Positions 893-35,072 of a DNA stretch of 63,417 bases are shown here, piece by piece; the first letter of the stretch is position 1; each line of letters starts with the position of its first letter. The notes beneath the pieces were generated by a model. The model did not search any database and had not been told where the DNA came from. It worked only from the letters and a program-made list of their open reading frames with translations. Origin of the DNA: Selaginella moellendorffii (Eukaryota > Plantae > Lycopodiophyta); contig NW_003314303.1 in assembly GCF_000143415.4 (NCBI RefSeq), forward strand, positions 559,043-622,459. The letters run 5' to 3'. Position numbers and translations under genes: made by a program.

Positions 893-3800
893 TTACACGT
901 TTGCTAGATTCTCCTCTGGTTCCCATGTTGCTTCGCAGTGTGGAAATCCTTTCCACTTCACATGGAACTCTCTCACCTCGCGTCCTTGTCGCTTGCTTTT
1001 GTGCGCATTGAGAATGGCCTCGACTTTGTATTCCTCTTCCCCTTGGATAACCTTAGGTAAAAGTTTTACTTGGTCCTTGCGAAGCGGATCCTCAAAATAC
1101 ACCTTGAGTAAGTTCACGTGGAACACGGGGTGCATCTTCCCCATCTCTCGAGGAAGTTGGAGACGGTAAGCCACTTTACTGATTCGAGCCTCAAACTTAT
1201 AAGGCCCCGCAAACTTGCTTAAGGAACTCAAGATCAATTCATTTACAGGAATACATGCATTTTTACCTTTGGGTCAACTTCTGGCTGATCCCACTTGGTA
1301 GCCTGAGGTTCTTGGTGTTCAGCCACACCTTCTCCCCAGCTTGGAACTCTACATCCCGATGCTTCTGGTTCGCGTACTTGGTTTGCCTTTGTTGAGCCTG
1401 TTCCAAGGAATCCCTCACTATATTCCAATGTTGAGTCTTTCCGCCGTGAATACCTCCACTGCGGGTAACTCTCCATGATACTCGGCCACGCCGAGTTCCA
1501 CAAGACCTCAATAGCTCGCCCATCGATGACTTCCCATGGACTCACCCCGATGCTCGAATGTATTGAGTTGTTATAACACATTTTCGCAAGTCCCAAATGA
1601 CTTACCCAATCGGTCTGGTCTCCCGAGACATAGCATCGCAAATACTTCTCCAGCTGCCTATTCACCCTTTCCGTTTATCCGTCTGTCAAGAAGTGTTAGT
1701 GCCATCAAACTTGACTTAATACCCATTACCTGTCTGTGGGTGATAGGCTGTGCTGAATTTCAACTTGGTGCGATACTATTCCAGGAGTGTTCTCCAGAAC
1801 CTACTAGTGAAGATCTTATCTCGATCCGAGATAATCTCTTTAGACCTTCCCCGCACTCAAACCACTTGTTCGAAGAACAACTTCGCCACACCTTCTGCAT
1901 CCACTTCCGTTGTGGTGGGTATGAAATGTGCCATCTTCGAAAATCGGTCCAGCACCACCAATATCGCATCGAACCCCTCGCTTGGGGGGAGTCCTGTGAT
2001 GAAGTCTATCGTAAGACATTTCCACGGATGATCTGGAATTGGGATGCTTTGTAACAAGCCCCCACTAGCCTTAGTCACAGCTTTGACCTGCTGACATGTG
2101 GAACATGTCTTTACATAGTCTTGGATGTCCTTAGCCATATCTAGCCAGTGGTACTTCCTCTTGAGTAAGCCCATTGTCTTGTGCACTCTGCTGTGTCCCG
2201 CAAGAGGTCTGTCATAACACTCTTCTAAGGCTAACTTCCTTAGTTCCCCTTCTGGAACATTTGCTTGTAATATATGAGTCCGTTACATTCCGAATAACCT
2301 GTTTTCTCTTCCATTGGCAGCTCACCTCTCTAGTGGGCTTCCCGTGCCTCTAGATTCCTCAGCAACACTTCTTGTGCTAGACCATCGTTCTCGTATGCGG
2401 TCTGCACATCATCCCAAAAGGTTGCTGTCGCGCTGGATATCGCCAACTTTAAACTCGCTTTTCGACTTAGCGCATCTGCCACGATGTTGCTCTTCCCAGG
2501 TTTGTACAGAATCTCGCAATCAAACTCGGCCAAAGCATTAGCCCACCAACCTTGTTTTCCCCTCAGGTCGGGCTGTGACAAGAAGTGTTTCGTTGCCACA
2601 TTGTCCATCTAAACTTTGAAGTGTCTCCCAAGGTAGTGTCGCCACTCCTTGAGCGCCTTGACCACTGCAAACAATTCCTTCTCATGGGCAGGCCACTTCT
2701 GTTGAGCTTTGTCCAACTTCTTCGAGAAGAACACTACTAGATGGTTGTCTTGCTTCAAAACTGCGCCCAATGCAAAGTCTGAAGCATCCATTTCTACCTC
2801 AAAGTCCTTACCAAAGTTTTGTAAGGCCAACACAGGAGCCTTCCTCAACTTCCCCTTGAGATGGACGAATGCCACCTTGCATTCTACTGTCAATACCATC
2901 TTCTCTTTTCCCGTTTGGTCCGTTAAGGGCAAGGCTACTCTCGAATAGTGTCTGATAAACTTTTGATAGTAGTTGCATAGCCCCTTAACTCGTGTACATT
3001 CAATGGTCGCTCCCAATCCTAGATCGCTTGGACCTTCTCAGGGTCCACCTTGAGCCTGTCCTTGCCCACCACATGCCCCAGAAACTTTACCTCTTGTTGA
3101 GCAAAGTCACATTTGCTGTCTTTAGCATAGAGCTTGTGTTCCCTTAGTTTCTCAAACACCTTCATCAAGTGTTTGGCATGCTCCTCTAGCGTTTCGCTAT
3201 AGATTAAGATATTGTCAATATAGACGACCACAAAGTGATCCAGATAGGGTACAAAGATATGGTTCATCAACGCCGAAAATGTTGCCGGCGCATTGCATAG
3301 CCCGAAGGGCATCACCAGAAACTCAAAGCTCCCATACCTTGTTCGACAGGTTGTCTTCTCGACATCTTCCTCTGCTACCCTGATCTGGTAGTATCCTGAC
3401 CTTAGGTCAATCCTCGAGAAGTATTTTGCCTTTCCCAACCTATCGAACATGTCCTCAATCCTTGGCAAAGGGTACTTGTTCTTCTTTGTATATTTGTTAA
3501 GCAACTGGTAGTCTATGCACATGGGCATAGATCCATCTTTCTTTTTCACAAATAACACTAGCGCCCCATACGGCGACTTGCTCAACCTAACATACCCTTT
3601 GTCCACCAACTCCTTTAGTTGGCACTTAAGCTCCGCAAGTTCCTTTTCGTTCAAGCGATAGGGGGGACAAACCACCGCCTCAGCACCCTCAATCAGCTCA
3701 ATCTTATGTTCTATCGGTCGTGCGGGGGCAACCCCACCGGTAGCTCCTCTGGCATGGTATCTTGGAATTGATCCAACACCTGCTGGATCACTAAAGGTAC

Positions 3801-5581
3801 TTCTTCCGTTCCTGTCTTTTTCTCACTACTCACCGAGAGTAAGCACAAAAATGCAGCCTTGGTCCCTTTAGTGAGTTGTCCTCTCGTGGACACCAGGTTT
3901 CGGCATGAATCTTTGGCCTTGCATTGCCCTACCTTTAGATCCTGGGCCTCCGTAGATCTTCTTCCTTGGGCATTTGCTAATACCACAAGGTTCCTACTTT
4001 ATTCATGTAGGGCTACCACAAACCGATTGAACCAATCCATCCCAAAGATCACGTCAAATCCCGCCATATCCAACACGGTGAAATCTATGTCTCCTTTCCA
4101 AGTCCTTACTTCGACTCTCGCTTGTCGAAGTACCTCATCAGTGCTTTGGTTACCTTGAACAAACTCTATAGTCCTTGGTTCGCCTAGCCGTTGCACCGTT
4201 AGTCCGGCTTGCCGGACTATGTCTGCAGCCACAAAATTATTCGAAGCACCCGTGTCAATAAGGATCTTAACAAAGCTACCTCCGAGCTTCCCTCGGAGGA
4301 CTAGTAGATGTCGCGAACGACTCTCTACCAAAGTTGCTCGTGTAATGAGTAACTTTGAGCTAGGGACTGGATCACATACCTCAGTTTGGACTTCACCCGA
4401 CTTAATGGCCATATTGGCTCTGGCCTTCTTCGGGTAGGGACATTCCCTTGAAAAGTGTCTCGCTTCACCACAGTTGTAGCATACATTGTTTTCCACGCTG
4501 CTAAATGACTTGACCTTCTTATCCATGGGTTTATCTCTTTTTGCTTGACTCCCCCACGTACTTGCTCGCTGGCCACCGGATTTGCCTTTCCGGAACCTCG
4601 AGGACTCATTCTTAGAGAAACTCTTCTTGAATTTCCCTTTGCTATATGTTCCCCATGGTTTGGCCCCTTTGCTAAACGTGGACCCCGACCCCGTCGTGTT
4701 CCCCTTTCGCAAGTTATTGTTGAAATGCACCTTGATAGCCGCATCCAACGCTTCTTTGTAATTGGTCAGGTTCCAACGCATCACCTCGCCACGAGCCTAG
4801 GTTTGCAAGCCCGATATGAAGGCATGGAACGCATCCATATCCCCCATATCCGTGACAAGTATCCTCTTTGCCATAAACATTCATACTCCTGAATGGTTCC
4901 GGTCTACTTCAGCCTACTCAGCTTGTCTCTTAGATGCAGAGTAGCATTCGGAGGAATGCAAGTCACGCGGATCCTCGCCTTCATTATGTCCCACGTGGCC
5001 ACCGGTCCTTCGTTAGCCTCCGTCATTCTCCACCAAGACTTGGCATTATCTGCCAAGTATGGTTTTGCACATGGGACCTTCTCCGAGCTCGGTAATCGCA
5101 ACACTCGGAAGTAGTCCTCCATATCATAAAACTAATCCTCCACCACCTTATAGTCGTTCACTCCCTTAAAGACCGGTGGGGGCTTTTGTTTGTACTTGGG
5201 AATTGCTTGAGGGACTGATTCCACTTCGGTCTGTTTGACCTTGTTTGGTTCTACCTCAGTCCTTACCGAAAGGTCCGCACCTTCTACGCTACCAGCATCC
5301 GCAGTCTTTCGCTTTTTCTTCCACTTCTCGTCACGCTTTAGCTTGCGTACAAGAGTCTCCAGCAGGGCATTGGTTTGTGCCAATTGTCCTTCTAGAACGT
5401 CCAATCGAGCCTTGGATGACCGCACTTCGCCATTGAACTCCTGTTCAGAAGTTTCCTCACTGGAGTCCTCCTCACGCAAGGATTTCTCATCCATAGCCTC
5501 TTGTTCGACTGGAGGCTCCAGCTCTGGAGGAGGTTCTATCTCTGCCTTGGTTCGTTTTCGCCCTGCCTTTGCCATTTCCAA
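893..5581 (-). pseudogene. gag-pol polyprotein broken by stops and frameshifts: Gag, CCHC knuckle, protease, RT, RNase H, integrase, chromodomain
   Basis: CYNCGEARHFSREC knuckle; ILIDTGAS protease; [22 protein letters not shown] and YIDN (RT); DASDFALGAVL (RNase H); CSTCQQ, IDFITGLP, GPY (integrase); YKVEAIL...FHVKWKGFPHCEATWEPEENL (chromodomain). Confidence 0.95.
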
Positions 5582-7765: not shown

Positions 7766-8834
7766 ATGACTTGCTATTGAATTTAAAATTTCGTTTGTAA
7801 AAGGAATCAGAAACATATCCTTTTTTCTTGCATCATTTAACTTTTTGTAATTCACACAAACTCATAATTTGCCATTTTTTTTAGGCACAATTACATGTGG
7901 TGAAAACCATTGAGCATTTTAGATTGAATAGATGAATCCTGCTTAGAAAAGTTTATTTGATTTCTTTCCTAAATTTACCTTGGTAATTAAGATTCATTTT
8001 ATAGGGCATCTGCCTTTTAGGCATATTTCCCAAGAATATCTCACTATGGTGTGTATAAAGTTCTAGTGGGATGCTTTTAAATCTATGTAAGACTAGGCAA
8101 AAATGTTTTTGTAATCTTTTAGTAGATTTATGGTTTGATTGTGAAAAGCTCTATTTCGTTAAAGTGGGATTTATTCAGTAAAATGGGACTAGGTACAAAT
8201 TTTCAAGTATTTGAAAATGACGTGAAATTATATGTTTTTTGTCTAGGGGCTAGACATATCTGGGGCATGGTGACTAGCGCGGTGACTTTGTGTCCAGACT
8301 GAGTCCATCTGGTTGTATAATAAATCTCATTGTCAAGGTGAACAAGCCGAATCTGAAGCTAAAGAAGAGCGATGGCATGCGCGCACACACTATTTGTTTG
8401 TTCATTGAGCGTGTGGTGAGCTTTCCAAGATGAACGTCATTCCTATTAGCCAGACATATAACTTAATGGTGAGAACATTTAGATATTATTCAATGTTATC
8501 TTTTTCTAACGAATCTAATTGTGAAGGTGTAGCAAGAGGCATTGCTAGTCTGGAGAAGTCATTTAACTCATTTGACCCTTAGTGTATTTTCATGAAACTA
8601 AATAACATTCATATTATTAAGGAATTTCTCTAGTACCTTTTTTTTACGACATAGAGGCTTGCATTTCTTTCAAAGGTGATTTAGTAAAAGGCCTGAGGGC
8701 ACATGCCATTCTATTTCTCAGACCGGTATTAAGATATACTAGTGCAAAGGGCCACATGCCATCACGCCTCCTCTGATTCAGATTCGGATTGTTCACCTTG
8801 AAATAAAATACATTAGAAACTTAGTAAAGGAATA

Positions 8835-9720
8835 TTAATGAATCTCACCTTGAACCCGGGTTATGAATGCTCTTGCTACATCTCTTGCATGGTCTGGCAA
8901 GGTGATGGTGGCACTCTGCTTCCGCATCCAACCATGCACAACATTATCCACCAATATGCTCATGCTGGGATCCCTTGGATTCAGCACCCATCTCTTTTCT
9001 AGGCAATCCTTCGTATATCCGGAACTTGGCTTGAACCACTCCACAGTTACATTGAAGGAGTTAGTTTCCGCGTCCTCCTCCGCATCAATGATGTAGCGCC
9101 CCACCCATATCATTTGTTTTTTATTACTGGGTCTGACAAGCACGACCATTCCTTTGCAGACCTGTACTGGATTGAATGCTGAATCCAGCTTCTTGTTCCT
9201 CGGCCCACAATAGTGATCCTCAACATCGTTATCTGTCACTGCATTTCCAGAGGACATTGTTCCGCTACTATCTGGTGCTCTGGGTTCTGGCCAAAAGGAC
9301 TCTTCCAATTCTTCATATACAACCGGCCCATTTTGGATAGCAGATATAATCTTCTCCCAGTATTCGAGCAAAGGCTTGCACCTCTTAAAATAGGATTCTC
9401 CACCAAACACCAACCCCCTCTTCCAGAAGGCAATATGCTGTCTAATCCCGACCACTATACTTTCCTGGTCTTTGAGTCCATCCGGGTGCATCGGCCGTGG
9501 GGAACCCTGAGGAATCATAGGTTCCCCAGTTATGGGATCTCTCTTGAAGAGTTCAATGCCATCCACTGGCAGCCACACTGTGTCCCATTCTCTCATCTTG
9601 TACCTCATCACTCTACCTCTATCTTCCACAATACGCTAGCCATGAAATTGCAAGGGCCCAAGATGGCATGTGCCCTCATGCCATTTCTAAATGTGGTCCT
9701 AAACCATTCCATGGTGAACA
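8835..9720 (-). pseudogene. Probable C-terminal remnant of a Sola1/DUF7869-like transposase with an SH3/Tudor-like tail; catalytic core not seen
   Basis: GPLQFH*..DRGRVMRYKMREWDTVWLP resembles the PHxFxF...GxVxMxYK...WxP segment that follows the DDE core in this family; KGMVVLVRP...IWVGR...VTVEWF is beta-barrel-like. By-eye match only. Confidence 0.5.
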
Positions 9721-12700
9721 TACCAGGAAGCACAAGTGCCGAATATCAAGAGGAAGCGGTAGCCACACCAAAGACAGTGCCGCTCGCAATGGCGCTTGCA
9801 ATGCCGCAACCGCTTGTAGACGCATAAACCACAGCTCACAACGCCGCTTACACAAGCAGCGCTCACTGCGCTCAGCGGAACCAAGAACACGGCGCACAAA
9901 AATGATAGACCTAGGAATGAGTTCGAGAATTCAAAAATAACACACGCTTGAACGTCACATCAAATCCTCTGACAAACCAGATCTTATGATTCCTCTGACA
10001 AATTTCAAACTGAGTAGCTTCTAGACTTTGCTGTCGGAGGTTGAACTTTGTCACATCATGTCCTTACCTCGATCCAGCTGTGCCATGTCAGTGATTCGAA
10101 CTTTGCCATGCCATGTCAGCGATCCGCGCCAAGATTATTCGCCGTGTAAAGGAATAATTATGCTGTGTGTGTACGTCCATTTATGGCAATATAAGGCCAC
10201 ACGCCATTCAAAGAATAATGCTAGTCGAGCATTTTTTGGTGCATTTTTGGGTTCAAAATTGCATGAGCCCACACGCTATAAAGTTTACCTGTACCAAAAA
10301 TAGAAACAGCTTTATTTACTTAGGAATTTAAGTGGTTGAGGCATTTTTAAACTTACAAACACATGCCCTACTTACATTCCTTTGGTTGCTTAAAATTCAA
10401 AAATATTATAAACCTTTCTTTTTGCATTTTCAATGTTTTCAATTATATTTGCATCCCGTCATGTTTATAGCTAGCTTTCGTTTGTCCCCTTCGCTAGCCT
10501 GAGATACATCTGCTCGGCATCTGCCTCTTATAGCATTTGCCCAGAAAGGGCATCTTTCTTCACGCAGCATTTGCCACATGTTTAGGGTTAGGGTTTAGGG
10601 TTTAGCAATTCAGTAGCTTGATAAACATGCAAATACAGAACTTGATGCAAAATCCTTTGATATGTCACAATGCCCCTAGGACCATAAACACATTTCAATA
10701 GAGAGGGTCCTTTCATTTTATAACTCCTTACGTAGATCTTGGTGAAACCAGAGTTAGTGAAGTTGGTTTCTTGTGATCCCACATCTGATTGTGATGTCCC
10801 TTTGCAGTGTCAATGGAAAGGTCAATGCACACCAAACTGTAGAATCTTGGAGGAAAATAACGGTCAGATCTATGGCAAATGCCCCTGAAACATTGTAAGG
10901 CTCGTGTGGTCTCATGTGGTGTCCGATCGAGATACTTCTTTGCAGGGTCATCAAGAAGGACATTGTATACCATTCTGTAAAATCTAGTTGCGATCTAACG
11001 GTTGGATCTCCAGGAAACTCAAAACAATCTCACGCGTGTTAGAATATTCTAGGAATATACTCCTATGTGCTCCTGAAAATGGCATGCGGCCCCACGCCAT
11101 TCAAGAGATAACGCCAGATGACGCCGAGCATTTTTTGGTGCATTTTTTGGGATCAAAATTGCATGAGCCCACACGCTTGAACGTCACATCAAATCCTCTG
11201 ACAATTTATTTAGCTGAACATCTGGCATTTTTGGAAATACAAGATGCTTTTGAATATCCAATCATGCATGGTATAAATATAGCGAGGGTATTAAATGATA
11301 TCCCAATCATGATCTTTCTTTTGGATTTCGCGTGCATGCAGTCCGAGGAATGATGACGTTGCGGATTTCTTTTGGATTTCACGCATGCGCACGGCGATCC
11401 AGAAATTAATGGTAGCGCCCAAGTCCGAGGAATGATGACGTGGCGGGATTACCAACCGTCGTGACATTTCGCGCGTGTGAGGTTAGGCTTTGCATTTTGC
11501 TTCGTACTCGCGCTCGCACACTCGCGCTCGCATCGCGCTCCCACTTCTCTACAGGTTTCTCGTGTGCATCGGCGTCCACTTGCGCTTGCATCACACTCGC
11601 GCTCGCATCGCGCTCGTGTGCATCGGCGTCCACTTCAAGACACACCCAGTTTGTAACTTTGCCGCCAACTCCGCCGCCCACTCCGCCACCCACACGCAGC
11701 CCACTTGGCGTCCTGGGAGATTTCAACACCACTCTCCAACTGTAAGTGGTAGAGTAGCCTTGCTGCTACGATCCGCTGCACACACAATGCACATTCGCCA
11801 GCGAGTCCGGTTGTCACGCCTCCATTCGGCTTCAAATGGTAAGTTTTTTAGGCCAAGTAGAAAATGGCATGAGGCCACATGCCATTCAGTAGCAACATTG
11901 GCATGCACCGATTGGGCTCTCGAGTGCAGTCCAGTTACAGATGGTGTGTAGCCTCACGCCATCTTAGGATGCAGCCTCAAGACATCTGATGCAGTGGTGA
12001 ATGGCGTGTGGCCTCACGTTATTTCCAGCTGCTAGCTTTTCATCTGTCAGCTCTAATTGTTGTGCATTTCTGAACAGGCGAGGAATTGCGTTCTTCTTCC
12101 AGCCACTGTCAATGTGGATGCAGAGAAGGGGGAGGAGCTCACCAGGTGGACTTTCGGGATGGAAGGCGAGGATTTGAGGCTGTACAACACAGATGGTGGG
12201 AGAAAAGAATGCATGGGGATCCTCATCCAAGTGACAGACACTCCATGCAGTTCCATGCAAGAATATGGACTGGCACTTGTGGTAGAGACAGCATCTGCCT
12301 TCAAGATCCACTTTGCACATCCTAGCAGCTTCCCGGAGGGGGGTAGCGGCTATGAGGAATTCCTAGAGCGAGCTAGGGAGAGGTTGTCCAGGAGGCCCAC
12401 AATTTCAAAGACGCTGCGGGTCTATGAAGATCACATGGAATCCACGGACCTTACCTACGGCGATGTTCAAAAATTATATTCCAACATTGAGCTGTTGAGA
12501 GTGCCTCCAGTTCGCAAAGTGAAGGGGAAGGGGGTTGATCTGGAAACTACCCCAAAGTAGAAAAGGGTGGTCAAGCTCAAGCCGATGTCCGACTCTCCTC
12601 CAAAAAAGAAGCTACTCGGTGATGCCATTGCCTCGGGTTCGAACACTACACCCACCAAAAGAGAAGAGCCGCAAAGAGCAGAAAGAGCAAGAAGAGGCAG

Positions 12701-12744
12701 CAAAAATCGTCGCAGATAATAGTACTTGTTACTATTCCAACAAA

Positions 12745-13140
12745 GTATATACAATCAACGTGAGCCGTATCGACATCCAAAGCAAATACAACCACAGGCT
12801 AGTATCTAATGAGTGGGTGGAGAAACTGAAGCAGAAGATGCTGGCAAGTCCAGTAACACCCGACATCGCAGACGTGATCCCCTACTACCGAACAATGAAG
12901 GGCGAGACGAGGTTTCCAGACTTGATCAATAGGAAGGTGTTGGACGATCAGAACATCCGGTTCTATGCCGTCTCCGGGCAGCATTCTAGCTTGGCGATGC
13001 AAGAGATAGTTGTGGATATTATGGTGGGCGAGGAGGTGAAGAAAGTCTTCAAGACAAGAGTTGTCCGCCTGATAAAAGGCAACTCGCCCCTCCGATCTAT
13101 CATATACATCTCCCACGCGCAGAATGTCAAGCAAGAAATG
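12745..13140 (+). other. ParB/sulfiredoxin-like domain
   Basis: YTINVSRI...NHRLVSNEWVEKLKQKM...IADVI...FYAVSGQHSSLAMQEI follows the ParB-N pattern R..V..L...hhhhGxHxxxA. Confidence 0.55.
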
Positions 13141-16100
13141 TGCTACAAATCGGGTCTGCACGAGACATTGGCACGAACACGGAAGCTCTGGGTTCAACTG
13201 AAGAAGCCACAAAAACCAGGACAAGGACGTGCACTAGCAACTAGCACCTGGCAGGTAAGCCTCGTTGCATGTGGCATAGCATGTGGCCTCACGCCATTTC
13301 CATTGCAGGTATTCTCGAGTTTTCTCTCGAAAACACTGGGGGTCAATGACACACTCAGCATCCATAACATTCTACTCGCGACAAAAGTTGTTTTTGACAA
13401 ATGGGTAGATGTGCTGAGGAGGTACCATGACGGGGAGTTGCCAAACTCAATGGGTGTGGAGGACGGCCGGAAGCCCAATGATTTGAAGCTCAACGCCTTG
13501 CGTTTCTCGCGGTCTCTAGACGACGACGACCTTCTGACAGTGGCTAATGCTCTTCTACGTGGTGAGGTAGTCTTCAACAAGACCAAAATGACTCCTAGCC
13601 ATATTGTGACATACGAGGACTTGTGCACGACTCTGAGAGCTCGTGCGCTATTGAAGGATTGGATCTTCGAGCAAGTGGCCGTGGAGAGGGTGAGCATCGA
13701 CACCACGCAAGAGATGATGGAAGCGCTGGATCTGTCAAATGAAGACATCGACGAGTACGTGAAGGGGGCCCCCAAGTTCATCGATCTGCTGCGGGATGCC
13801 ACGAAAAGTAAAGCTGAGAAGTTGGATCAGTATCCAAATTTCATTAAGATTGATGTCGACCGCCGGCTTCAGAAACAGCTCGACCCCGCAGCAGAGGCCT
13901 ATCGAGAACCTTACCGGGTATACTTGAATTTGGATGAGGATCAAAGGTGGAGGAGCATCGTTTCCTACGGAGATGAGCAGGTCAAGAACATCTTTTGTGT
14001 GATGGACTTCACAAACGAGGAGATCACTCATGCAGACGAAGTCAGCTCCATCATTGACTTAATGGTGGGACTTGCGGAGGTGGAATCTTCAGTCCACTAT
14101 ATGATCTACGACTCCGAATCCTATCACAAGTTCTAGAAGGCCTTCAACGAGGTGAAAGCTCGGTTGAAAGGCAAGGAGATGCGGGAGATCCATGGGATAA
14201 TGGCTAAGAAGAAGATACCGACGAATGTCCGCATCTTCACACTCGCTCTTGTTATTGGTCCTGCAGCAGAGTGGGACTGGAGTGACTTCCCAGCTTCGTT
14301 CGACAAGGCCAATCGAATTGATCTGAGGGAGGTCAATTTACCCGTGCCTGAGGAACTGAAGACGGCTATGGAGCTTTCGAATCCAAAGAAAGCTCCAGGT
14401 GCAGCATGGGAAATGCTCAGCTGGGTCTTCAACGCAATAGCGGGTGGGTCACCTGCTTCCGACTCCAAGGGCAAATGCGTTGTCGAGTACAACTGCGGCG
14501 GACTATTCTTTCGAGCCGCACTACTCAAGGGTGTCCCGTGTGTTGCAGTGACAAACTCCATTGAAGAGGTGACTTCAATGGAGCATATAATTACAGTTGC
14601 CAAAGAAAAACAGTATCTTCTCTGCAAACCTGGTGAGTACACACTTTAAGTTTAAATGTTATCTCACAAGCTCTGTATGCAGGAGCGTGGCCACCCCCAG
14701 ATGTTGAAACGGCGTTAACAGCTACTGTTGAAGATACCCATGTTGGGCCGAGCTCACAACCTGCACAAGGTAAGGTCACGTGAGGCCTCACGCCATTTTG
14801 ATTATAGATCGTTGTGAATATTCAGACACGAGGACTGAAAAGCGCACTGGTGGCGCATCGAAGAAGGACAAACAGACAAGCAATAGGAAAAAAGGAGGTA
14901 CAAATTATATTTGCAATGGCGTGTGGTCTCATGCCATTCCTTGCAGGAGACACTTCTTCAAAGGCAAAACAGGCAAGCACCAGCCAAGCTCAAACTGACA
15001 GTGGTCATAAAAAGCGAAAGCACGTTGGACAGTCGTCGAGATCAGAGGCGTTTGATTCGAAAAGGAAGAAGGGCAACGAAAAGATGATAGGTAATGCCTC
15101 GCGATTATGGCGTGTGTGCTCACGCCATTCATTGCAGATCAAGGGCTGAGTGAAAGCAGGCAGTCACCACCTCCTGACTCAGATTCCTATGGCGGACTCC
15201 CCTTCCCCAATCTCAATGGAGAGGTACAATGGATGAGGGATGCTTTTCAAGTCAGGGCCACATTTTTCTCATCTTGTCGTCTTCGAAGGGTGCAAGAACG
15301 TGCAGGAACCATGTTAAGACAGTCGGGTGAGGATACAGTCCTAGGTCACGCACTAAAACATGCTATGGATGTCTTGTATTTTGAGATGGAGACTTAGCCA
15401 GATGATTTTCCCAAGATGGTCCTGGAAGAACAAGCCATCCAGCCTGAGCAGCCTATGGAAGAAATGCAGGAGGGGGATGAGGAGCCAGAGAAAGATAATG
15501 AGCAGGAAGAGCAGAAGGACGAAGAGGAGGACAAAGAAGAGGAGGACGAAGAAGAGGAGGACGAAGAGGACTTGGATGGTCCTCACAAAGGTGACGATCA
15601 CAATAACGACGACGATGATGATGACGACGATGGCCAGCCTGAGGTGGCCAAAGAGCAGCAGAGGAAGGTCATACAAGACAAACCATCAGGTAAATAATAG
15701 TACATCCATTCCTAACCTTTTACCATTTCTAACATTGTCCATGTAGGTCGCAGAGCAAATGGTAAGTAGAGATTATTCAGTTGAATTTACAAACTCTAGC
15801 CTTTAGTGTCGAGGAAGGATAGTGCCAAGCAAGGGTCGAAACGTATGTCCAATCCTTCAGAATCAGCAGTGCGCCCAAGTGATATCGGTCCTAGTTCCTC
15901 AATAGCAGTTGATGGTAAATACAGTATAGTCGATTCAATGTGCTAATGAGTTTGTTTTTAGTAGCACGGGAGGATACCATCTCAATCGAAGGGAGATATT
16001 TGGACATGCATATGGATCCGCCAGTGGACTCTACTTGCCTACAAGAGTCATCAGAGCTGGTGGAGGCTACTATCCATATCAACGCCAAGCAAGCTGACCA

Positions 16101-16571
16101 TGCTCCACTTGATGCTACCCATACCACTGAGTCAATCTTGTCCACGTATCCAACTGACGGTGACCAGGCGCCATTGGACCCGCATGAGGCCGCCCCAGCC
16201 CCCGAGCCGGTCGTATCCTCATTTCCAACGGACTCAACGTGTGCCCAATCGTCTGACTACACGCCGTTGGAACCTCCCTACACTGCCCCTGCTGCCTGTT
16301 CGATCATGTCCACTTTGCCAACGGAGGCACCAGCTGAAATGGCGTGTGATCACACGCCATCGGAACCACCCCATGCCACTGTTGAGCCAGTTGTACCAGA
16401 GTCTACAGCTGAAATGGCATGTGCCCACACGCCATCGGATGCGATTGACCCCACATTGCAGAGGAGAGTATTTCCGCCCTTCACGTTTCCTCGACCAAAA
16501 CCCTCTCAACGACCATCGGGAGCACCATTCGCTAATATTGTAGATGGTAAAATTGACTTGTACCATTTTTT

Positions 16572-17456
16572 ATGCTGACGCATTTTATTTCAGAGTCACG
16601 GCGAAGGTACTGTATCATTTTTGATCTGAACGGTGTCCTTTTCTCCCATGAGCGTGGCTCGTCCTCGAATGTCATTGCACCCTCCAAAGCCTGCAGTCGC
16701 AAGTTGGTCAAAAGAGACAGATTCACATTAATCACATGGGAGAAACTACGGGATCTAATAATGACCATGCGACACTTAAAACAGAGGGCCGGGTTCAATT
16801 TGCAATTGGGAGTTTGGACATCCATGATGCGCCACAATGCATTAACGTTGCTACAGATGATGCACGATCAGACGCGAGTAATATTACCATTTGACTTTCT
16901 CCTAACGCAGGAGGATTGCTTGACTATGGTCCATGTGAGGGGTAGCAAGCCCATCTTCGTCAAGCCAGAGGCTGTAGTGATGAACCGGACTGCTAGCTCA
17001 AGTGAAATCCTCATCATCGATGACTCGCCGATTAAAACTGCAGCGAACACGCACACATATGCAGTGCACCCCATCTCTTGCAGTATGGAAACTAGGGAGA
17101 AGAAACCGTATGTTCTGGGAGACCTTGCAAAACGGCTTGGAGCAATGGTGATAGAGAACCGGCTAGTCCAGGAGGTGGCTGCAGAAATCAACCAAATGGC
17201 AGATGGAACGGTATATCAGAAGCCATTTGATCGGACAGACACCAGTCATCATTTATGGCATGTATATTGTCTAGCCAAGCACTATCCGCATCTCCATAAT
17301 CTGCTCAACCGGATGGGTTCTTTGACCACTGAACATGAGCGTGGACGTATTAGAGAAGAGATGGCATTACTATTGGGTTTAAATCCTAATAGTGTGGAGA
17401 GTGATGAAATTCCAAGATTATTGTATAGGCGTTGGAGGCAAAAAATAACAGTTTGA
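16572..17456 (+). CDS. HAD-superfamily FCP1/NIF-like phosphatase domain (DLNG variant); last exon of the cargo gene or a separate ORF
   Basis: CIIFDLNGVL (motif I), LGVWTSMMRHNA (II), TQEDC...KPIFVKP (III), LIIDDSPIK (IV). Confidence 0.8.
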   Translation: MLTHFISESRRRYCIIFDLNGVLFSHERGSSSNVIAPSKACSRKLVKRDRFTLITWEKLRDLIMTMRHLKQRAGFNLQLGVWTSMMRHNALTLLQMMHDQTRVILPFDFLLTQEDCLTMVHVRGSKPIFVKPEAVVMNRTASSSEILIIDDSPIKTAANTHTYAVHPISCSMETREKKPYVLGDLAKRLGAMVIENRLVQEVAAEINQMADGTVYQKPFDRTDTSHHLWHVYCLAKHYPHLHNLLNRMGSLTTEHERGRIREEMALLLGLNPNSVESDEIPRLLYRRWRQKITV

Positions 17457-18309
17457 GATGGCATGTATTTATTTAAAAATGTAACTTATTATGGCATGGG
17501 GTTCCATGCCATTGTATTAATATTAAAAGACAATTCTTTGAGAGGATTTGCATTATACTAGAAGTGTTACAGCATGTTATTGGAAGTCTACGAAGTTGTT
17601 TTATTAATAAGGGGAAAGTAAAGATTGAATGGGGACTTGGGCTCCACCTAGACTCGGAGCAACTGAGCCAATATTAAAAGGATGGAAAGAAATTGGACGA
17701 CGATAACAAGGAGAAGAAAGAGGTGAAGCAGTGGCAGGGGGAGGAGAAGTGATTGAGTAGACATTTCCTTGTTTAAAATAAAATGGCATGTGCCTCAATG
17801 CAGTTGAATTTTGTTATATTTATATACTATATAAAGGTTTGGAAACCTTATTTTACAAGTGGGATAATGACAATTCCCACTTTAACGAAATAGAGCTTTG
17901 AAATTCACTTTGCAATCCTTGAGCAATTGTGACAGTATAAAAATTATTCTCATTTGCTAAATTAATTTGCTCAAGTGGTTGATCACAAAAAACATATAAA
18001 ACATAGTTTCTTTATTAATCATTTTTATAAACAAGATCCTCCTTTAGGGAGAAATCTCTTATAACTATACTAATTTCTAGTCTAAAAGCTTCTTACCTAG
18101 GTGTTTCTTTGAGTATTGAATTTTTATTTTTCAACTGCAAATCTTATTTTTGAACTCCAATCAAATCATAATATTTTATATAAAAGTCATACAAAGCATT
18201 AGAGCAATCTAACACAACTCTTAGCTTATAGTTTTAATAACATTTTTAACATCAACAATGGCTTCTTAATTTTGAGCTAAATATTGGTATGCCAACAAAG
18301 TTTGATAGC

Positions 18310-18596
18310 ATGCTTTATTTCGTTAAAGTGGGACTTTTCATTATCCCACTTATGGTGTGTGGCCACATGCCATTTTTATAACAACAATAAAAAATTGAAG
18401 TTTTAACTTTATAATTTATAAATTAAAAACTTTTCATATGATTTTGTGTTATAATATTGTGAAATATAAAAAATAAATTAAAAAACTGATAGAAATATTA
18501 ATAAATATTAATTAAGTACTAGGAAATGGCATGTGGACACATGCTAATTAATGTCCCACTTTACTGAATAAGTCCCACTTTAACGAAATAAAGCAT
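18310..18596. mobile_element. 287-bp MITE of the same TIR family as 8146-17898
   Basis: TIR ATGCTTTATTTCGTTAAAGTGGGACTT ... AAGTCCCACTTTAACGAAATAAAGCAT; 4-bp TSD TAGC at 18306-18309 and 18597-18600; two subterminal palindromes. Confidence 0.88.
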
Positions 18597-19100
18597 TAGC
18601 ATGCAATCCAAATTCAATAAATTAGTTATGCTTTGGATTGTCATGTAATTTAATCAATATTCCACTTCAACTTCTTGTGTGGAATTGGTTAGATATCTTC
18701 TTAGTATGACACCTCTTTCTTGGTTTTCTACCATTTTTGAAAAGAGTGATAATATTTTTTCAGGATTTTAATTTTTTTTATTTAGTGTTTCACCTGTATA
18801 TAAAGTGATACTAACTGGGAGCACATCTCTATTAACAAGTTGTAGCAACTATACCAAAACTTCAAGGCAAGAACACAAACTAGAATGTGAGACAAGAGAA
18901 AGCTAGTGAGAAATCAAAGGATATCAACCCAAGACTAATATTGGTAGAAAATCATGTATCTTATTTCATGATTAATTTAGTTTCTAGCTGATACATGTTG
19001 AATCCTATTAACTAAAAAGTAACAAATAAATCAAGGATATTGTCATGCATTGTTCTTATAAATCCCACAAGATGGAAGTCCAAAACCTTTGAAAAGAACT

Positions 19101-20245
19101 TGTCGCGAATGTGACTTCAGGTATCGAAAGTTACCTGTCGGCTAGTCCTTACGGACACTCTTACCTTACTGCCACGATGGCAGGAGGTCGGTATTGTTGG
19201 TTCCCTTTATTAGCCCCTCTTGTTCAAGTGTTAGTTTACTGGGCTTAGCACCTGTACTTAGCCAGATGGACATAAGGTAGGAACTCCTATGTGTTTCTAG
19301 CTGAGCATACTCGGCCTGGCTTTTAGTTCTCTTTTGCTTTGTCTTGCACTGGCTTGACAAGAACCCTCGCATATTGAGATTGGTCCCTCAATATCGCTGG
19401 ATGATAGCTTACCGTGTCTGCCAAACACCCTCGCTATCATGCCCTTTGTGTTAGTCTCATTTCGGTCCCAAATGCTATTTATGGAAAGTGTCCAAATTTG
19501 CTCATTTGGCATATCTACGGAATGTAGAGATCGGCCTGAACACAATGGTATTCGTCCCATGTCCAAATTCACAATTTAAGGACATTCCATATTTAGTAAG
19601 TTTCGAGTTTGTCCCAGAGACTAACTCCTGATACTAAGGGAGGCTTGGGGTGAAAGCCCAAAGCGTGTGTTCCTCAAGGGGGGGGGGGCTATGGGGGGTT
19701 CCAAATGTATAGTAGGGATAGTGGGTAGGTCGGGCATGGCCAACCAACCTGAGGCATAGTCTAGCTCCCGCTTGCGTGCCTATCCTTGTTCTGCGTCCGG
19801 CTTGGGTCTAAGCCCAAGTTCCATTCCATGCTAGCTGGTGGAGTACCCATATCCTCACGTTAAGCCACCGGTATGCCGAAATAGCGCCAGACTCCGTTTG
19901 GCTCCGTTTTGCGTGCTGGTCCTGGCATTGGGATGCTAGTTGCTTCAGGACTGTTCCAAGTCGCTCCGGGCCTCTATCCCTTCGCTCCTTGGGCTGTATG
20001 CTCGGGAGTTGCTCTGTGGTTCGGTTCCATCACTCCTTGGCTCCATGCTTGGGAGTTTGGCACCGTTCGTGCGTTCAGTGGCCCAAGGCCCTGAACCTCG
20101 GGTTCCTATGGATACGTGGCATGGACACGTGGCATGTGACACGTGGCATCTGTCACGTGGCACAAAGAGGGTTTAGGTTCCACTTCGTGGTGTTATCCTA
20201 TGGTAAATCACCATAGGATAAAGGGTCAAAACCACATGCGCTACA
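19101..20245 (+). mobile_element. Solo LTR, family C
   Basis: TGTCGCG...CGCTACA; TSD GAACT at 19096-19100 and 20246-20250; matches the LTRs at 37062 and 42955. Confidence 0.95.
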
Positions 20246-25660: not shown

Positions 25661-26083
25661 TGGAGTTGGTACTATTTCATTAGGAATATCCTAGGAGCAA
25701 GCTTCCTCAAGAAACTAAAACAAGACTTGGAGAAAATGGAATGTTAAGAGAACTTGTGATGGTGGTCCAAAGCAAAACATGCAAGGATGCTAGACCAAGG
25801 CACAAAGTTTTATTGGTGCCACAACTTTGTCTAAGGAGAGGTGCACCCTCCTATCAAAGCGATGCTGCTAGGGAATCACAGCAAAGAAACTGCAATGTTG
25901 GAAAACTAACTATCCAACCAAGTAACTAGGAAAATTCTCCAATCATGAATTTATGTGACCAAAGTTAAAATCAGTTGCTCTGTCTACTGCTGTAAATGAG
26001 TAGGGCTTGACTTACAATAACGCCGTTAGTAACCCTAAAAAGATTCGTTTTCAATATTCTTAAAGTTCGTGAATGCTAGGGCT

Positions 26084-27691
26084 ATGGATGAAGTCGCTCG
26101 CGTGGAAGCAACTCCTGCCGCTCTCCAGAGGGTAAGAAGTGGGGTTTCAGGCAGTCCTTTCCTCAGGTCGATCGTGCGCAAGATGGAAGTCGCAACAGCG
26201 AGCAGGGCGTCTCCGAGAGTCGTCCTCCCGCAGCACTGGCAAGAGGAGATGGTTCGCGTGGAGCCGACTCGTATCAATCCCGTCCAGGCCGACCCAGAGA
26301 AAGCATGGCGGGCATCCGCGGACGTGTTTGAGGAGTGGATCGTCGACGTCGAGGACGCGAGCTGGAAGGAGTTCGTCCAGACCCCGCTGCCCGAGCTCCC
26401 TGAGCTAGTGATCCGCACGTACTCCAACGTTTCGCCACCGCCGCTCGCCGAGCTCTGCCCGCTCGACTTTGAGATGCGCTGCTGGTGGTCGTTTCATGGA
26501 GAGATGGACGAGTGGATCCAGCAGCAGCCGGACGATTTGCCAGCTCCAGATGCTTGTCCGCTGGGACATTTTCGGTGGATCGCACTGAATTGCGGGCATA
26601 GGTCCGGGCAAATCCAGACCACTTCACTAGCGGCCTTGTGCTGCTACCCCGATGCGATGGTCAGAGCAGATCCTGGGATTCCCTCTCTGCCGGATTGCAG
26701 GAAGATGTGTCTCGTTGGTGTCATGGCGATGAATCTCGATGAGAAGAACAGCAGCCTGGAGATTCAAGCTGCGAGGCTCTACTCGTACATGTTGCTCACC
26801 GGCTCGTACTTCGGGATTCTGTCCTCCTACTTCAAAACTTTTGCTTGCAAGAGGCTGCCGGGGTTGGATGGGTGCTTGTGGATCTCACCTCCGCTGCTCT
26901 ACAACAGCGGCGACACGCTCAAAGCTTGCGGATTTGTGGCATGGCAGGCACAGAACTTCTGCGAAGCTAGAGCAGTGCCAGTTCCTCCCGATCTCCAGGT
27001 TCCTTTCACAAGGACGGGGCCTCGAGCGTTTGATCGTGTGCCGATTCTTGCGAGGCTTCGAAAGCTGGCCAAGGAGCAGGGTGTTGCAAACATGGACGAG
27101 CTTGTGGAGAAGCTTTCGTGGTGGGACGATCTACAAGCCCTGAGCGAGCCTGGTATCTTCTCACACAACGCAGAAAAGGGGCGGATCCTGGTGTCTGCCG
27201 AGTACCATGGGAGGCTTGTGCTTGTCAAGTTCAGGGACTTGACGCAAAGCGAGTGTTTGGATACAGACTTTTACCTTAGGAGGTTCCTTCGTGAGGTGGA
27301 TGTTTACATGCGGCTTCGGGATTTGCAGGGCGATGCCATTGCTGAGATGTTCGAGTATGGTTTCGTGCGTGGCGCCGCCATTTGCTTCGTTGTCCTCACA
27401 TACTGTGGCAGCTTCTCGAAAATGGTTCCTTTGTATGGCAAGCGCTTCAAATCGTTAAACGACGATGGTGGCACCTTCGATGCGGGAGCTGAGTATGATG
27501 TGATCATGTCCCTCCTGCAAAAGGTTCATGCTCAGGGCGTCCACTTTGCTGGTAAGCCGGACTGGACGCGCATGTATGGCCAAGCTAGCCGATTTTTCTT
27601 GGTTGGAATGGCAGGGGGCCATCTGGGAGTCAGCGATGCTGCCAAGGCTAAGGATGTTGAGTTTTTGCGTGCTTCTTTGTTACCAGTATAG
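26084..27691 (+). CDS. Intronless Crinkler-like protein: degenerate REase-fold domain plus divergent kinase-like domain
   Basis: 535-aa ORF. QAARLYSYMLLTGSYFGILSSYFKTFACKR...LWISPPL is the CR-REase-type pattern; VLVKFRD...FLREVDVYMRLRDLQGDAIAEMFEYG...LQKVHAQGVHF is kinase-like, with no HGD or DFG motif. Confidence 0.65.
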   Translation: MDEVARVEATPAALQRVRSGVSGSPFLRSIVRKMEVATASRASPRVVLPQHWQEEMVRVEPTRINPVQADPEKAWRASADVFEEWIVDVEDASWKEFVQTPLPELPELVIRTYSNVSPPPLAELCPLDFEMRCWWSFHGEMDEWIQQQPDDLPAPDACPLGHFRWIALNCGHRSGQIQTTSLAALCCYPDAMVRADPGIPSLPDCRKMCLVGVMAMNLDEKNSSLEIQAARLYSYMLLTGSYFGILSSYFKTFACKRLPGLDGCLWISPPLLYNSGDTLKACGFVAWQAQNFCEARAVPVPPDLQVPFTRTGPRAFDRVPILARLRKLAKEQGVANMDELVEKLSWWDDLQALSEPGIFSHNAEKGRILVSAEYHGRLVLVKFRDLTQSECLDTDFYLRRFLREVDVYMRLRDLQGDAIAEMFEYGFVRGAAICFVVLTYCGSFSKMVPLYGKRFKSLNDDGGTFDAGAEYDVIMSLLQKVHAQGVHFAGKPDWTRMYGQASRFFLVGMAGGHLGVSDAAKAKDVEFLRASLLPV

Positions 27692-27964: not shown

Positions 27965-28630
27965 TCAAAAGATTTTACAGATCTTCCTGTATCTCTTTGT
28001 TTTGGCGATGTCAAGGGCCCGTGTCAAATCCTCCGCCTTAGCAAATGTCTCCAGGAAAAACCCAATATCCTTGAGATGTGAATACTTCCGCCCCTTCCTG
28101 TTCTTGAAAGCCGGGATGGGGATTCCATTCCTGGGCTGCAAGGAAAAGGAGTGGGGATTGTCGTCCACGATCACCACACGCTTCAAGTCGCGACCCAAGC
28201 GCGACAAGTCTTTGATCATTGTTTCCCCTCCGTCGCAAGAAACACACGAATCCCGGTACAGGCGGTGAGTGATCAATCCCTCTGGGTCGAGCTTGTCCAG
28301 AATCTTGTCTGCATAGTATTGCATCGCTGCGGTAAACACAACTATCTCGTAGAGCTTCGCCATGTCTCGCAGGAACTCGTCCACGCCGGGCCGCTTAGCC
28401 ACCATGTAGCGCTCCAGTGGCACAACTTTCCCGCTGAAGAGCCTGAGCGTTGCTTTCCCCTCTCGGGCATGGATGAGGGTGTTGTCCATGTCCAAAACCA
28501 ACGTTGGCTTGTTTGGATCCAGAGGTGGCGGTAGAATACATGTAGTAAACTCACCCTTCGTTTTCACCTTCTTGGGCTCTGGCATAAGATCTAGTGTCTG
28601 AAAATCCCAATCTCCATGCTCGCGCTTCAT
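27965..28630 (-). CDS. SCP/CTDSP-like small CTD phosphatase (NIF/FCP1 domain), intronless
   Basis: TLVLDMDNTLIH (DxDxT), KRPGVDEFL, VVFTAA, RLYRDSC, KDLSRLGRDLKRVVIVDDNP. Confidence 0.92.
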   Translation of the reverse strand: MKREHGDWDFQTLDLMPEPKKVKTKGEFTTCILPPPLDPNKPTLVLDMDNTLIHAREGKATLRLFSGKVVPLERYMVAKRPGVDEFLRDMAKLYEIVVFTAAMQYYADKILDKLDPEGLITHRLYRDSCVSCDGGETMIKDLSRLGRDLKRVVIVDDNPHSFSLQPRNGIPIPAFKNRKGRKYSHLKDIGFFLETFAKAEDLTRALDIAKTKRYRKICKIF

Positions 28631-28723
28631 TTTCGACAGAACGAAAGAGATAGCCCTAGAGGTGGCCTTTTAGTGAACGAACTAATACATTGAAAACCTT
28701 AAACTCGCTATCGATTTGATCGC

Positions 28724-29690
<967 letters not shown>

Positions 29691-30577
29691 TCAAAATATC
29701 TTCAAAGAACAGAACCTCTAGTAATCCCATGCCTCAGGCTGGCGCCGGTGGGCTAGTAGCCGGAGGAAGCAGTGCGATCTCGACCCGATGAGAATAGTGG
29801 CTGATGCGGGAGCTGAATAGCTTCAGGCCTTCCATGGATCCGGAAAAGAAGATCTCTTAGAACGTGATCGATCCAATGAGTGGGTAGTGTGATTGTTTCT
29901 AGCAGAAAAAATAAGAAACTCCTTTTAGCACGTATCCTCTTCGTCATCCTCGTCTATCTCCATCAAACATGAACTCCTGTTAGGCTCGGATGGATCTTTG
30001 GACACTAACACCTAGTTTGCGTACAGTTCATGAAATCACTATAATTCTCTTTCTCTTGCTGGAGAGGTTTGCCCCGAGTGTCAAGGGCAGAGCTGAGAAT
30101 CTGGGATGGCAGATTTATTGACACGCCTCCGTTGAGTAGGATCTAAGGAATGCGTTTAATTCTTTCAGGCTTCTCTCCAACACGCAATTCATTGAGAATG
30201 TGAGTCATTTCTTTCCCTTTCCTGCTGTGACGTGTTTGAAAGGTGCAGGAAGATGAAACCTTGACTCCCCAGAAAGAAAAGGACGGAGAATCGCCTTGTG
30301 TGGAGAGCTACAAGGGTGGTATTGTTCCTCGTTACAAGGAGGCTGTCACTACTGCATGGAATGGCATCTAAAGCTTTCTCGAAGTCAAGTAAGATCTCTT
30401 AAAAATCTTTGAAGTTACCTGTTAGTAGAGAGAACTTTCTCTTATCAGGAAGCGAGGCCCAGTTTGCCTTATAAGAGTGAGGAGTTCATGCGTGATCTTG
30501 CCAGGTTTCGTTCATTCTCATTAACTTTAGTTTCTCGGAAATCATCAAACTTAATTCATCAAAATTGCATCCATGAT

Positions 30578-30718
30578 CATGGGCCAGCCTCTTTTTCCTT
30601 GCACTGTTGCTCAAAGGTCGCAGGATCTGGGCAAGATCCTCCTCGACTCCAATCTCGGTTCTTATCCACAAGGGCAAAAATCATCGTCATCGACTAGGTC
30701 TGGCCCGGAGAATCTCTA
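30578..30718 (+). pseudogene. Inverted tau-GST exon-1 relic with many small deletions
   Basis: The blocks TGGGCCAGCC, CTTGCACTGTTGCTCAAAGG, CAGGATCTGGG, CTCCTCGACTCCAATC, CGGTTCTTATCCACAAGGGCAA and GGTCTGGCCCGGAGAATCT are collinear with GST exon 1. Confidence 0.75.
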
Positions 30719-31076
30719 TTCTTGCAATCGATTAAGGACATAGATTTCGGATATTCTTGTACGAAAATGACTTTCTTACCAAAGTTGTTTAGTACTTGTC
30801 CACTAGATTTTGTTGGCGATGATCTTTGGAAGGAAAACATTTAGATTATATGACATTCTATATCTCGATGAGCTCCTTTCGTGGATGATGGTCAAGTTAT
30901 GCGCACTGGGTGACACAGGAAGAGCCGTGTGGGAAGCAGAAAAGCTAGCTTCAAATCTTTTTGTTATCTCGAGCTAGCGATATGACCGTTTCTCGAGGAA
31001 GGCAAAGCAAGCAACGCTAATGTAAGATTATCATAGACAACTTGGAACGGTCAATAACAAGAGAGCTTTTCATCGC

Positions 31077-31813
31077 TCACTTGCTCCCATAGCGAGCCTG
31101 GATATACTCCTTGAGCTTGTCGATCGGCGGCAGCGCCACTTTGGCCGAGGGATGCTCGGCCACGGCCCCGAAGAGTTTGTGGAGACGCGGGCATTGCTCC
31201 CGGCTCGCGGGCTTCAAGCCCATCACTTGCTCAACCCCTGGGATCAACACCGCATAGGGAGCCAGCATCACATCCAAGAACGACATGCTCCCGCCGCCAA
31301 AGAAGGGGCCCTCTTCCTCATCGCCCAGCTCCGCCAGAGCTCCCTCGAGAAGCAAACAGTTTTGGATGAACTCCTCGTTCACGGCAGCGCCACCGTCGCT
31401 GCTGCGCACGAATCGTCCCAAGGAGTCGAGAATCTGTGTGATCGATGAAGTAAGAAATAGCAGCAGATTTATCGAAGAAAAACCCATACCTTCTTGTCAA
31501 TGAAATCGGTCCAGAAGCGGTGCTTTGCGCGGAGGAATGCGTCCTGAGGCAAGAGTGGGCTTGTTTCGGGCCAGACCTCGTCGATGTAGTGGACGATGAT
31601 CGCCGATTCGGAGACGGGCTTGCCCTTGTGGATGAGAACCGGGGTCTTCTTGTGAACTGGATTGGACTCGAGCAGGAGCTTACTCTTGTTATCCAAATCC
31701 TGGGGGAGATCTTCGTGCTCGATGCCCTTGAGCAACAGTGCAAACTTGGCTCGCATGGAAAAGGGGCTGGCCCAAACTGTGAGCAGTGTTACATCTTGAC
31801 CGTGAGAAGCCAT
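31077..31813 (-). CDS. GSTU: Tau-class glutathione S-transferase (2 exons)
   Basis: Same motifs; close paralog of 28724-29447. Confidence 0.95.

Positions 31814-35037: not shown

Positions 35038-35072
<35 letters not shown>

Follow-up and report, generated by a model that had tools for sequence, protein, structure and literature searches.

What a 22-bp palindrome is doing in a short run of plant DNA, inside introns as well as outside them, is the question raised by a 63,417-nucleotide stretch of Selaginella moellendorffii (contig NW_003314303.1, positions 559,043 to 622,459; "the window" means the whole of this 63.4-kb stretch). The reading preferred here, at a probability of roughly 0.5, is that the palindrome (ATGGCRTG-N6-CAYGCCAT) is a word confined to one multi-copy family of plant DNA transposons and is likely a double-stranded DNA docking site for the family's own ParB-like accessory protein. 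A decayed long copy of the transposon that carries the accessory gene (element A) and a much shorter derivative (element B) both lie in the window.

The palindrome and its transposon

A scan of the whole window with the 22-bp pattern gives 16 matches at two or fewer mismatches, eight of them exact and all inside 8372-18547, whereas 100 shuffles scanned at the same limit averaged 0.03 matches and never gave more than one; the clustered palindrome described by an earlier note on this DNA is thus real. Every one of these matches falls in element A or element B, and the rest of the window (about 53 kb, host genes included) holds zero copies at that limit. The earlier note had overlooked that the stretch is a bounded transposon, whose terminal inverted repeats (TIRs) and the duplications of its target site (TSDs) are as follows.

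8146..17898, unstranded: element A, a decayed, internally deleted TIR DNA transposon with 26-bp TIRs, termini AAGC..GCTT and an exact TSD
8142-8145 and 17899-17902: 4-bp TSD of element A, TGAA, identical on both sides
8146..8189, plus strand: left TIR with subterminal repeats of a AAAGTGGGA-type word (not the palindrome) at 8161 and 8180
17857..17898, minus strand: right TIR with an inverted pair of the AAAGTGGGA-type terminal word at 17857 and 17875
18310..18596, minus strand: element B, a 287-bp non-autonomous sister derivative, inverted relative to element A, with termini ATGC..GCAT and TSD TAGC
8835..9612, minus strand: 3' remnant of 258 codons, likely a transposase C-terminus

Contigs from a public sequencing run depart from the window sequence exactly at 8146 and 17898, into foreign flanks, and thereby confirm the ends of element A independently. 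That the family is multi-copy is indicated by different flanks at the same element ends in two runs of one sample, in both of which contig depth within the element is far above the outside level (though depth does not give the number of copies). Most of the listed places where the window copy departs from family contigs are A>G or T>C (90 out of 116 and 91 out of 127), a pattern that suggests decay from G to A and from C to T, as would be expected if the copy was methylated. The foreign flanks at the left and right ends look alike by eye as inverted sequences near the junction, which may mean a target preference. Plant telomere-like TTTAGGG repeats lie within element A at 10580-10605, and 10573-11072 is missing from some family contigs.

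The TSD search covered about 44 offset/length pairs, and an imperfect 8-bp TSD was superseded by the exact 4-bp TSDs. These, together with the AAGC/ATGC termini, rule out a Spy (PHIS) insertion, which has no TSD, lies between AAA and TTT and ends in GGANNNNG. Lanisha/CMCT, GingerRoot and KDZ were rejected on differing termini or TSD, and a recombinase crossover site was rejected since no recombinase was seen.

A looser mismatch limit brings in palindromes at 14775, 17783, 8741 and 11158. A weak extra site at 10186 comes from a position-weight matrix alone, trained circularly on 20 of the sites that it scores; this site is included in the counts of placement and branch points and left out of the covariation, flank and half-site statistics. 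The refined consensus is ATGGCRTG-WGSSCW-CAYGCCAT. The spacer, which the earlier note described as varying in sequence, is as constant as the arms at two of its positions (G at position 10 in 19 of 20 sites, C at position 13 in 18 of 20; G in 37 of 40 when the sites are read as half-sites), and is a 2-bp centre plus two tolerant positions, not free sequence. The sites of element A outside introns are the following.

8372..11179, unstranded: non-intronic palindromes of the left part, at 8372, 8688, 8741, 9663, 10186 (weak), 10258, 11079 and 11158, by pattern and matrix scan
16339..16435, plus strand: two exact palindromes, at 16339 and 16414, in a Pro/Thr-rich coding linker, within a local 75-nt duplication
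17491..17804, unstranded: palindromes between the accessory gene's stop codon and the right TIR, at 17491 (exact) and 17783 (degenerate), by pattern scan

Element A has 19 sites at a mean spacing of about 510 bp, 17 of them in non-coding DNA (ten outside introns and seven in predicted introns). The other two lie in the low-complexity coding linker, where 16339 and 16414 encode EMAC(D/A)HTPS just as the earlier note had read them. Coding DNA is depleted: it makes up 5480 of the 9727 possible start positions and has 2 of the 19 sites (p = 4.5e-5).

The palindrome might have no function of its own, having been spread by local duplication, gene conversion or tiny insertion, or being a host transcription-factor site that the element collected. 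Two pairs (10258/11158 and 16339/16414) do share flanks and arose by local duplication, and some family contigs break or join near the copies at 9663, 11072, 11886 and 14776, which may be alignment artefacts. Apart from these two pairs, the copies have flanks no more alike than background (mean identity 28%), and none of the 190 site pairs compared has both flanks at least 60% alike. The conservation is also position-specific and strand-symmetric, and neutral spread and a host factor alike sit badly with a word that has no copy at two or fewer mismatches in the other 53 kb or so, host genes among it. This alternative is accordingly judged quite unlikely.

Direct duplications between the two divergent genes (10188-10278/11088-11178 and 9941-9975/11170-11204) carry or adjoin palindromes. 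Family contigs with loose ends at 8751 and 9686 suggest by eye a further palindrome just past 8751 in other copies.

A transposase is the other protein that could use such a site. CACTA elements carry subterminal motifs, and the palindrome might likewise be a secondary transposase site, an enhancer of end pairing dispersed through the element. Element B retains both ends, two palindromes (18352 and 18526, about 42 and 49 bp inside its ends) and little else, and the evidence for DNA over RNA given below serves a transposase as well as an accessory protein. The ends, on the other hand, have their own repeated AAAGTGGGA-like word, so the palindrome is a second cis element, and the copies of element A closest to the ends are about 226 and 94 bp away, with most copies deep inside at one per 510 bp or so. 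A transposase site is therefore held unlikely, though less so than spread without function.

The accessory gene and its protein

11836..17456, plus strand: accessory gene with ten predicted GT-AG introns, about 1640 codons in one frame, from reading frame and stop counts
11839..12077, plus strand: intron 1, 239 nt, with palindromes at 11864, 11941 and 12001 and, apart from them, the branch-point word CTAAT at -22
13255..13308, plus strand: intron 2, 54 nt, in frame; palindrome 13276 holds the sole CTNAY word, with its A at -18
14770..14825, plus strand: intron 4, 56 nt, with degenerate palindrome 14775 and CTCAC with its A at -36
14898..14946, plus strand: intron 5, 49 nt, with exact palindrome 14916 and predicted branch A at -16
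15091..15137, plus strand: intron 6, 47 nt, with exact palindrome 15107 and predicted branch A at -16
14633-14682, 15690-15746, 15762-15806, 15915-15961 and 16547-16593, plus strand: five palindrome-free introns of 45-57 nt
12730..13896, plus strand: predicted N-terminal domain of ParB/DndB/DUF3723-like type, with a GQHS motif, and next to it a helical domain, from 15 homologues, Atlas and a profile match
13900..14632, plus strand: methyltransferase-like domain with a C-terminal motif resembling those that bind S-adenosylmethionine (SAM) and no DPPY-type catalytic motif, from VIA-align
16594..17456, plus strand: NIF/HAD phosphatase-like C-terminal domain with DLNG in place of DLDE (Pfam PF03031, E = 1.5e-4)

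The accessory gene is broken in the window copy by stops at 12558, 14134 and 15395 and, near 12661, by a frameshift of one nucleotide; other family copies, as seen in contigs, have neither the first of these stops nor the extra base. From a baseline of three stops, retaining an intron raises the count to 26-56 for six of the nine introns tested and to 6 for two others, while intron 2 is in frame. Homologues of the protein either lack the 18-residue read-through of intron 2 or start or stop at that point, so intron 2 is real and old. The sizes are ordinary for the host, as two introns of glutathione S-transferase (GST) genes in the window have 55 and 56 nt. RNA reads (about 12% of each of two raw runs) gave no splice joints and hardly any fell on exons, and contigs of runs X1, X12, X14 and X16 (guessed to be RNA, possibly DNA) gave no joints and in some cases ran unspliced through introns; neither set speaks for or against splicing. 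Most matching RNA reads fell on a 40-nt stretch just upstream of the gene (11739-11778), which matches abundant reads and is possibly a captured fragment of ribosomal RNA (rRNA), the flanks of those reads resembling large-subunit rRNA.

The earlier note had placed one palindrome in each of several tiny introns, and four introns of about 50 bp with one copy each are indeed present, as are the three copies after the first donor site (11864, 11941 and 12001). The copy at 14775, however, has three mismatches and a decayed left arm, two of the intron boundaries were off by one (now 13255-13308 and 15091-15137; the other two stand), and "once in each tiny intron" was an overstatement, with five of the ten predicted introns lacking a palindrome and ten of the 19 sites of element A in non-coding DNA outside introns. 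Seeding of the introns by the motif, another suggestion of that note, is improbable in the case of intron 2, as homologues at 20-30% identity share its position. Introns 2, 5 and 6 have little in common beyond the palindrome and the acceptor, and introns 4-6 lie in a linker for which there are no comparable homologues. Introns 3 to 10 (14633-16593) are all eight in phase 1, which is what growth of the linker by duplicated or shuffled exons would give.

A full HMMER search with the accessory protein gave 16 hits, of which 15 are real homologues at about 20-30% identity, those named coming from Selaginella moellendorffii, Calypogeia and Riccia; P0002 (2573 aa, repeat-rich) was dropped as an artefact before alignment, and P0016, which fuses the same N-terminal domain to NIF, was omitted from A5 and A7. 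Residues conserved in the homologues include D59, G94, H96, R124, N143, S152, R162 and P171. The protein is probably ParB-like. For the liverwort homologue P0010, the nearest Atlas features are fungal DUF3723 clusters (0.94; 179 of 256 features), and ParB or DndB clusters appear in six of ten structure rows. Alignment by hhalign with a bacterial ParB profile puts the motifs of the N-terminal domain and the following helical domain in register, as a weak match, and one homologue matches DndB weakly (E = 0.04). Over residues 568-645 of the protein, the top six rows of VIA-align are SAM methyltransferases, with Z of 4.6-5.8 over about 60 residues, below the tool's clear level. A motif-I-like (SAM-binding) word occurs in six of 26 aligned sequences and the catalytic [DNS]PP[YFW] motif in none of the 26, many of which are fragments that end before this domain, so far as these sequences go consistent with a domain that is probably a pseudo-methyltransferase rather than a catalyst.

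Several points weigh against a docking site bound by this protein, beginning with a ParB assignment that is indirect. The Atlas structure scores for P0010 are under the naming bar of Atlas and come from a low-confidence homologue model, and profile comparison with 50 bacterial ParB proteins gives a weak match (E = 0.05-0.09), scoring 19.6 where the best of 30 shuffles reached 18.9. The window's own N-terminal domain matches no family in Pfam, NCBIfam, PHROG or PADLOC, and the arginine of the ParB GxxR motif is replaced, the window protein and the homologues covering the motif reading GQH[ST] or GAHS; CTP clamp activity is doubtful because GQHS stands in place of GERR. The alignment-based model has a predicted local distance difference test score (pLDDT) below 50 over most of the N-terminal domain and is confident only at residues 203-400, the helical part, and Foldseek with this model found nothing at E ≤ 0.001. 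Protein and pattern scans retrieved no related element with both gene and palindrome. To these points are added the end-proximal palindromes of element B, which fit a role in transposition equally well, and two properties of the introns taken up below, their share of the non-coding sites and the folding of introns 5 and 6.

A single-sequence model has a pLDDT of 30, and the missing ParB rows in VIA-align are uninformative given a model that is poor in its N-terminal part. Pfam DUF3723 matches neither the window protein nor the 16 HMMER hits. No related loci emerged from protein scans and no homologues from three word-based searches, tblastn returned either no phage or plasmid hits or ones at E > 0.7 alone, and PDB sequence searches gave nothing meaningful. 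Pattern scans outside the window yielded 62 viral loci, none with a second site at two or fewer mismatches, and 58 GC-rich metagenome loci, two of which have one weak second site; none of these viral and metagenome loci is homologous to the element.

Proposed double-stranded site, possible hairpin and predicted branch point

A palindrome can act as double-stranded DNA or, once transcribed, as an RNA hairpin, and the two make different demands on its arms. Compensatory changes between the arms were looked for and none were found: when letters are shuffled among the sites, pairing is as good or better in 459 of 500 shuffles and covariation is as high in 384 of 500. Positions 6 and 17 form an A-C mispair in six of 20 sites and vary independently of each other (p = 0.63). 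G10 and C13 are conserved like the arms, yet they would close a 2-nt loop and cannot pair. At the half-site CpG, CA is found 21 times and TG 3 times (p = 2.8e-4), a base-specific preference that is the same on both strands and is not predicted by pairing. Because the arms show no covariation, a double-stranded DNA site is favoured over an RNA hairpin, and that the palindrome is such a site, whether for the accessory protein or for the transposase, is considered fairly probable. No match above a gathering score was found in Rfam. The site of a dimeric protein, proposed in the earlier note in preference to tandem duplication, fits this lack of covariation, the 28% identity of the flanks and the presence of a candidate ParB-like binder encoded by the element, with the two locally duplicated pairs as exceptions.

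The RNA alternative, also raised in the earlier note, is that the palindrome works mainly as a hairpin, masking the branch point and thereby regulating how the accessory-gene transcript is spliced. Weakened by the absent covariation and the unpaired G10 and C13, it draws on three observations: the folds of introns 5 and 6 are better than those of shuffled sequences (z = -2.5 and -3.1), their extended stems reaching as far as the acceptor; introns are modestly enriched within non-coding DNA, with 7 of 17 sites (p = 0.003-0.017); and the sole CTNAY word of introns 2, 4, 5 and 6 is the one in the palindrome, three of the four times at a distance that suits a branch point. Against it, introns 2 and 4 show no such advantage over shuffles (z = 0.45 and -0.22), any palindrome yields a hairpin as a by-product, and 12 of the 19 sites of element A and both sites of element B lie outside predicted introns. 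As the main function of the palindrome a hairpin is improbable, to about the same degree as spread without function.

A link to splicing exists in another form than the one first proposed, namely that intronic copies overlap the predicted branch point. The word CTNAY marks the branch point, and the palindrome's invariant A16, read within CTCAY, is found at -18 from the end of intron 2 and at -16 from the ends of introns 5 and 6, so that the palindrome would double as the branch point there. The palindrome-free small introns have CTNAY at -15 to -17 in four of five cases (shuffle rate 6.5%). T14 is found in six of seven intronic sites and one of 14 others (p = 8.5e-4, noticed post hoc). The simplest reading of the overlap would be dual coding, DNA site and branch point in one sequence; a hairpin masking the branch point is possible. 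Since a 22-mer fits an intron of about 50 nt only by sharing its CAY with the branch point, dual coding would also account for the single copy in such an intron and for its constant distance to the acceptor.

Related systems and the rest of the window

If the palindrome is a docking site, the accessory protein would bind it through the helical domain, as a dimer, about every 500 bp along the element. Binding would mark copies of the family as self and most likely keep them expressible or pair their ends for transposition, in the manner of VANC. Because it is probably not catalytic, the methyltransferase-like domain might read or shield DNA rather than write a mark, and the sites would have accumulated where coding constraint allowed.

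Element A is probably Sola1-like, with the transposase core missing from the window copy. Family contigs extend at least 2453 nt past 9612, so the 5' part of the minus-strand gene has been deleted here. The remnant has no match in domain-family, homologue and PDB sequence searches; it is likely a transposase C-terminus, judging from its position and from an apparent resemblance to moss Sola1-type proteins.

The TSDs TGAA (element A) and TAGC (element B) have the 4 bp of Sola1. Insect Sola1 and Sola1_NA have 4-bp TSDs AWWT/AWDT and termini that start GG, according to the available part of PMC3845634, which also shows, by eye, TTTATTT and AAAGTGG close together in the TIR, as here; TGAA and TAGC are not AWWT targets, and the termini here do not start GG. 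The TSD of the Ectocarpus family Sola1-1_Ec32 is only biased to end in A, in the part of PMC12477816 available. Other superfamilies were weighed on the basis of partial texts of PMC4122938, PMC4482050, PMC12730594, PMC8245031, PMC6839031 and PMC9033089.

Sola1-1_Ec32 is the closest precedent for the gene arrangement. As far as the available text of PMC12477816 goes, it carries a gene for a ParB-like protein with an N4C/N6A methyltransferase opposite the transposase, proposed to bind its own element, and has AA-starting termini, a 4-bp TSD and a best protein match to moss Sola1. The element here is likewise a large TIR element with AA-starting termini and a 4-bp TSD, with an accessory gene opposite a presumed transposase gene and a ParB-like domain followed by a methyltransferase-like one. 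It differs in its land-plant host, in a TIR of 26 bp rather than 282 bp, in lacking a DPPY-type motif and in its added acidic linker and NIF/HAD domain; the comparison is one of gene layout, domain order and ends. A dispersed palindrome goes unmentioned for Sola1-1_Ec32, the main text of PMC12477816 having 0 uses of "palindrom" and the supplements one, for another family. A ParB-like and methyltransferase gene opposite a transposase is therefore already known from what is available on that element, and the new points would be the candidate target word and its overlap with predicted branch points.

In Arabidopsis VANDAL elements, the short motif bound by VANC21 lies in introns and elsewhere in the element's non-coding DNA, by the available portion of PMC5735166, and the likeness lies in an element-specific short motif concentrated in non-coding DNA (introns, intergenic and terminal) together with an encoded accessory protein. 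The VANC motifs are 9-bp, non-palindromic tandem repeats, in contrast to a dispersed 22-bp palindrome with unrelated flanks save in two pairs; the protein family and the transposon superfamily are different, and only for VANC have binding and demethylation been demonstrated.

ParB-HTH (helix-turn-helix) proteins fused to adenine methyltransferases occur in chlorophytes and chytrids, per the accessible part of PMC4738411. DUF3723 is a Starship cargo of unknown function in the available portions of PMC9156397, PMC10104507 and PMC11162782, and the fungal Starship genes resemble the accessory gene in that they are cargo of large mobile elements and supply the nearest Atlas feature clusters of the liverwort homologue; Starships differ in moving by a tyrosine recombinase, and Pfam DUF3723 does not match the window protein.

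With bacterial ParB-parS and DndB the element shares a palindromic site in several copies and, at a weak match, motifs in ParB register across the N-terminal and helical domains; it departs from ParB-parS in having GQHS for GERR and no ParA in sight. The palindrome does not resemble the parS consensus. A literature search for DUF3723 together with ParB returned 0 papers, and a search whose coverage left out most subscription journals gave no paper linking such a protein to a palindromic site.

A wider reading is that ParB/DUF3723-like accessory proteins with a dead methyltransferase form a widespread eukaryotic parS-ParB system, with its own palindrome for each element family, in which the protein protects or moves the element by coating or looping it and branch-point copies couple the DNA mark to splicing of the protein's own message. 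This is conceivable but doubtful, a little less so than a transposase site. Were it true, it would provide the first target site for the ParB/DUF3723-like class and a test for DUF3723 in Starships. As for the docking-site reading, algal ParB-methyltransferase accessory proteins have been proposed to bind and modify their own elements, and no named target site was found in the literature searched; a sharp 22-bp candidate in about 20 copies makes the idea of self-binding testable by one gel shift. If true, there would be a second, unrelated system of self-recognition in plant transposons beside VANDAL/VANC, derived from a bacterial partition-type fold. The branch-point overlap would be a neat example of two codes in one sequence. 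Since the window copy is dead, the interest lies in the family.

The rest of the window holds pieces of a long terminal repeat (LTR) retrotransposon family (reverse transcriptase, protease, zinc knuckle) with long 12-bp repeat arrays and several LTR-like copies, and host genes.

45-356, 3019-4796, 34013-35236, 47528-47939, 19094-20245, 37055-38195 and 42948-44081: LTR retrotransposon pieces
26039-27691, plus strand: intron-free open reading frame of 550 codons with no Pfam match, its C-terminal part kinase-like by eye
27965-28669, 28715-31830, 56222-57790 and 58984-59997: host genes, comprising an NIF phosphatase with a single exon, two clusters of tandem GST copies and a UDP-glycosyltransferase

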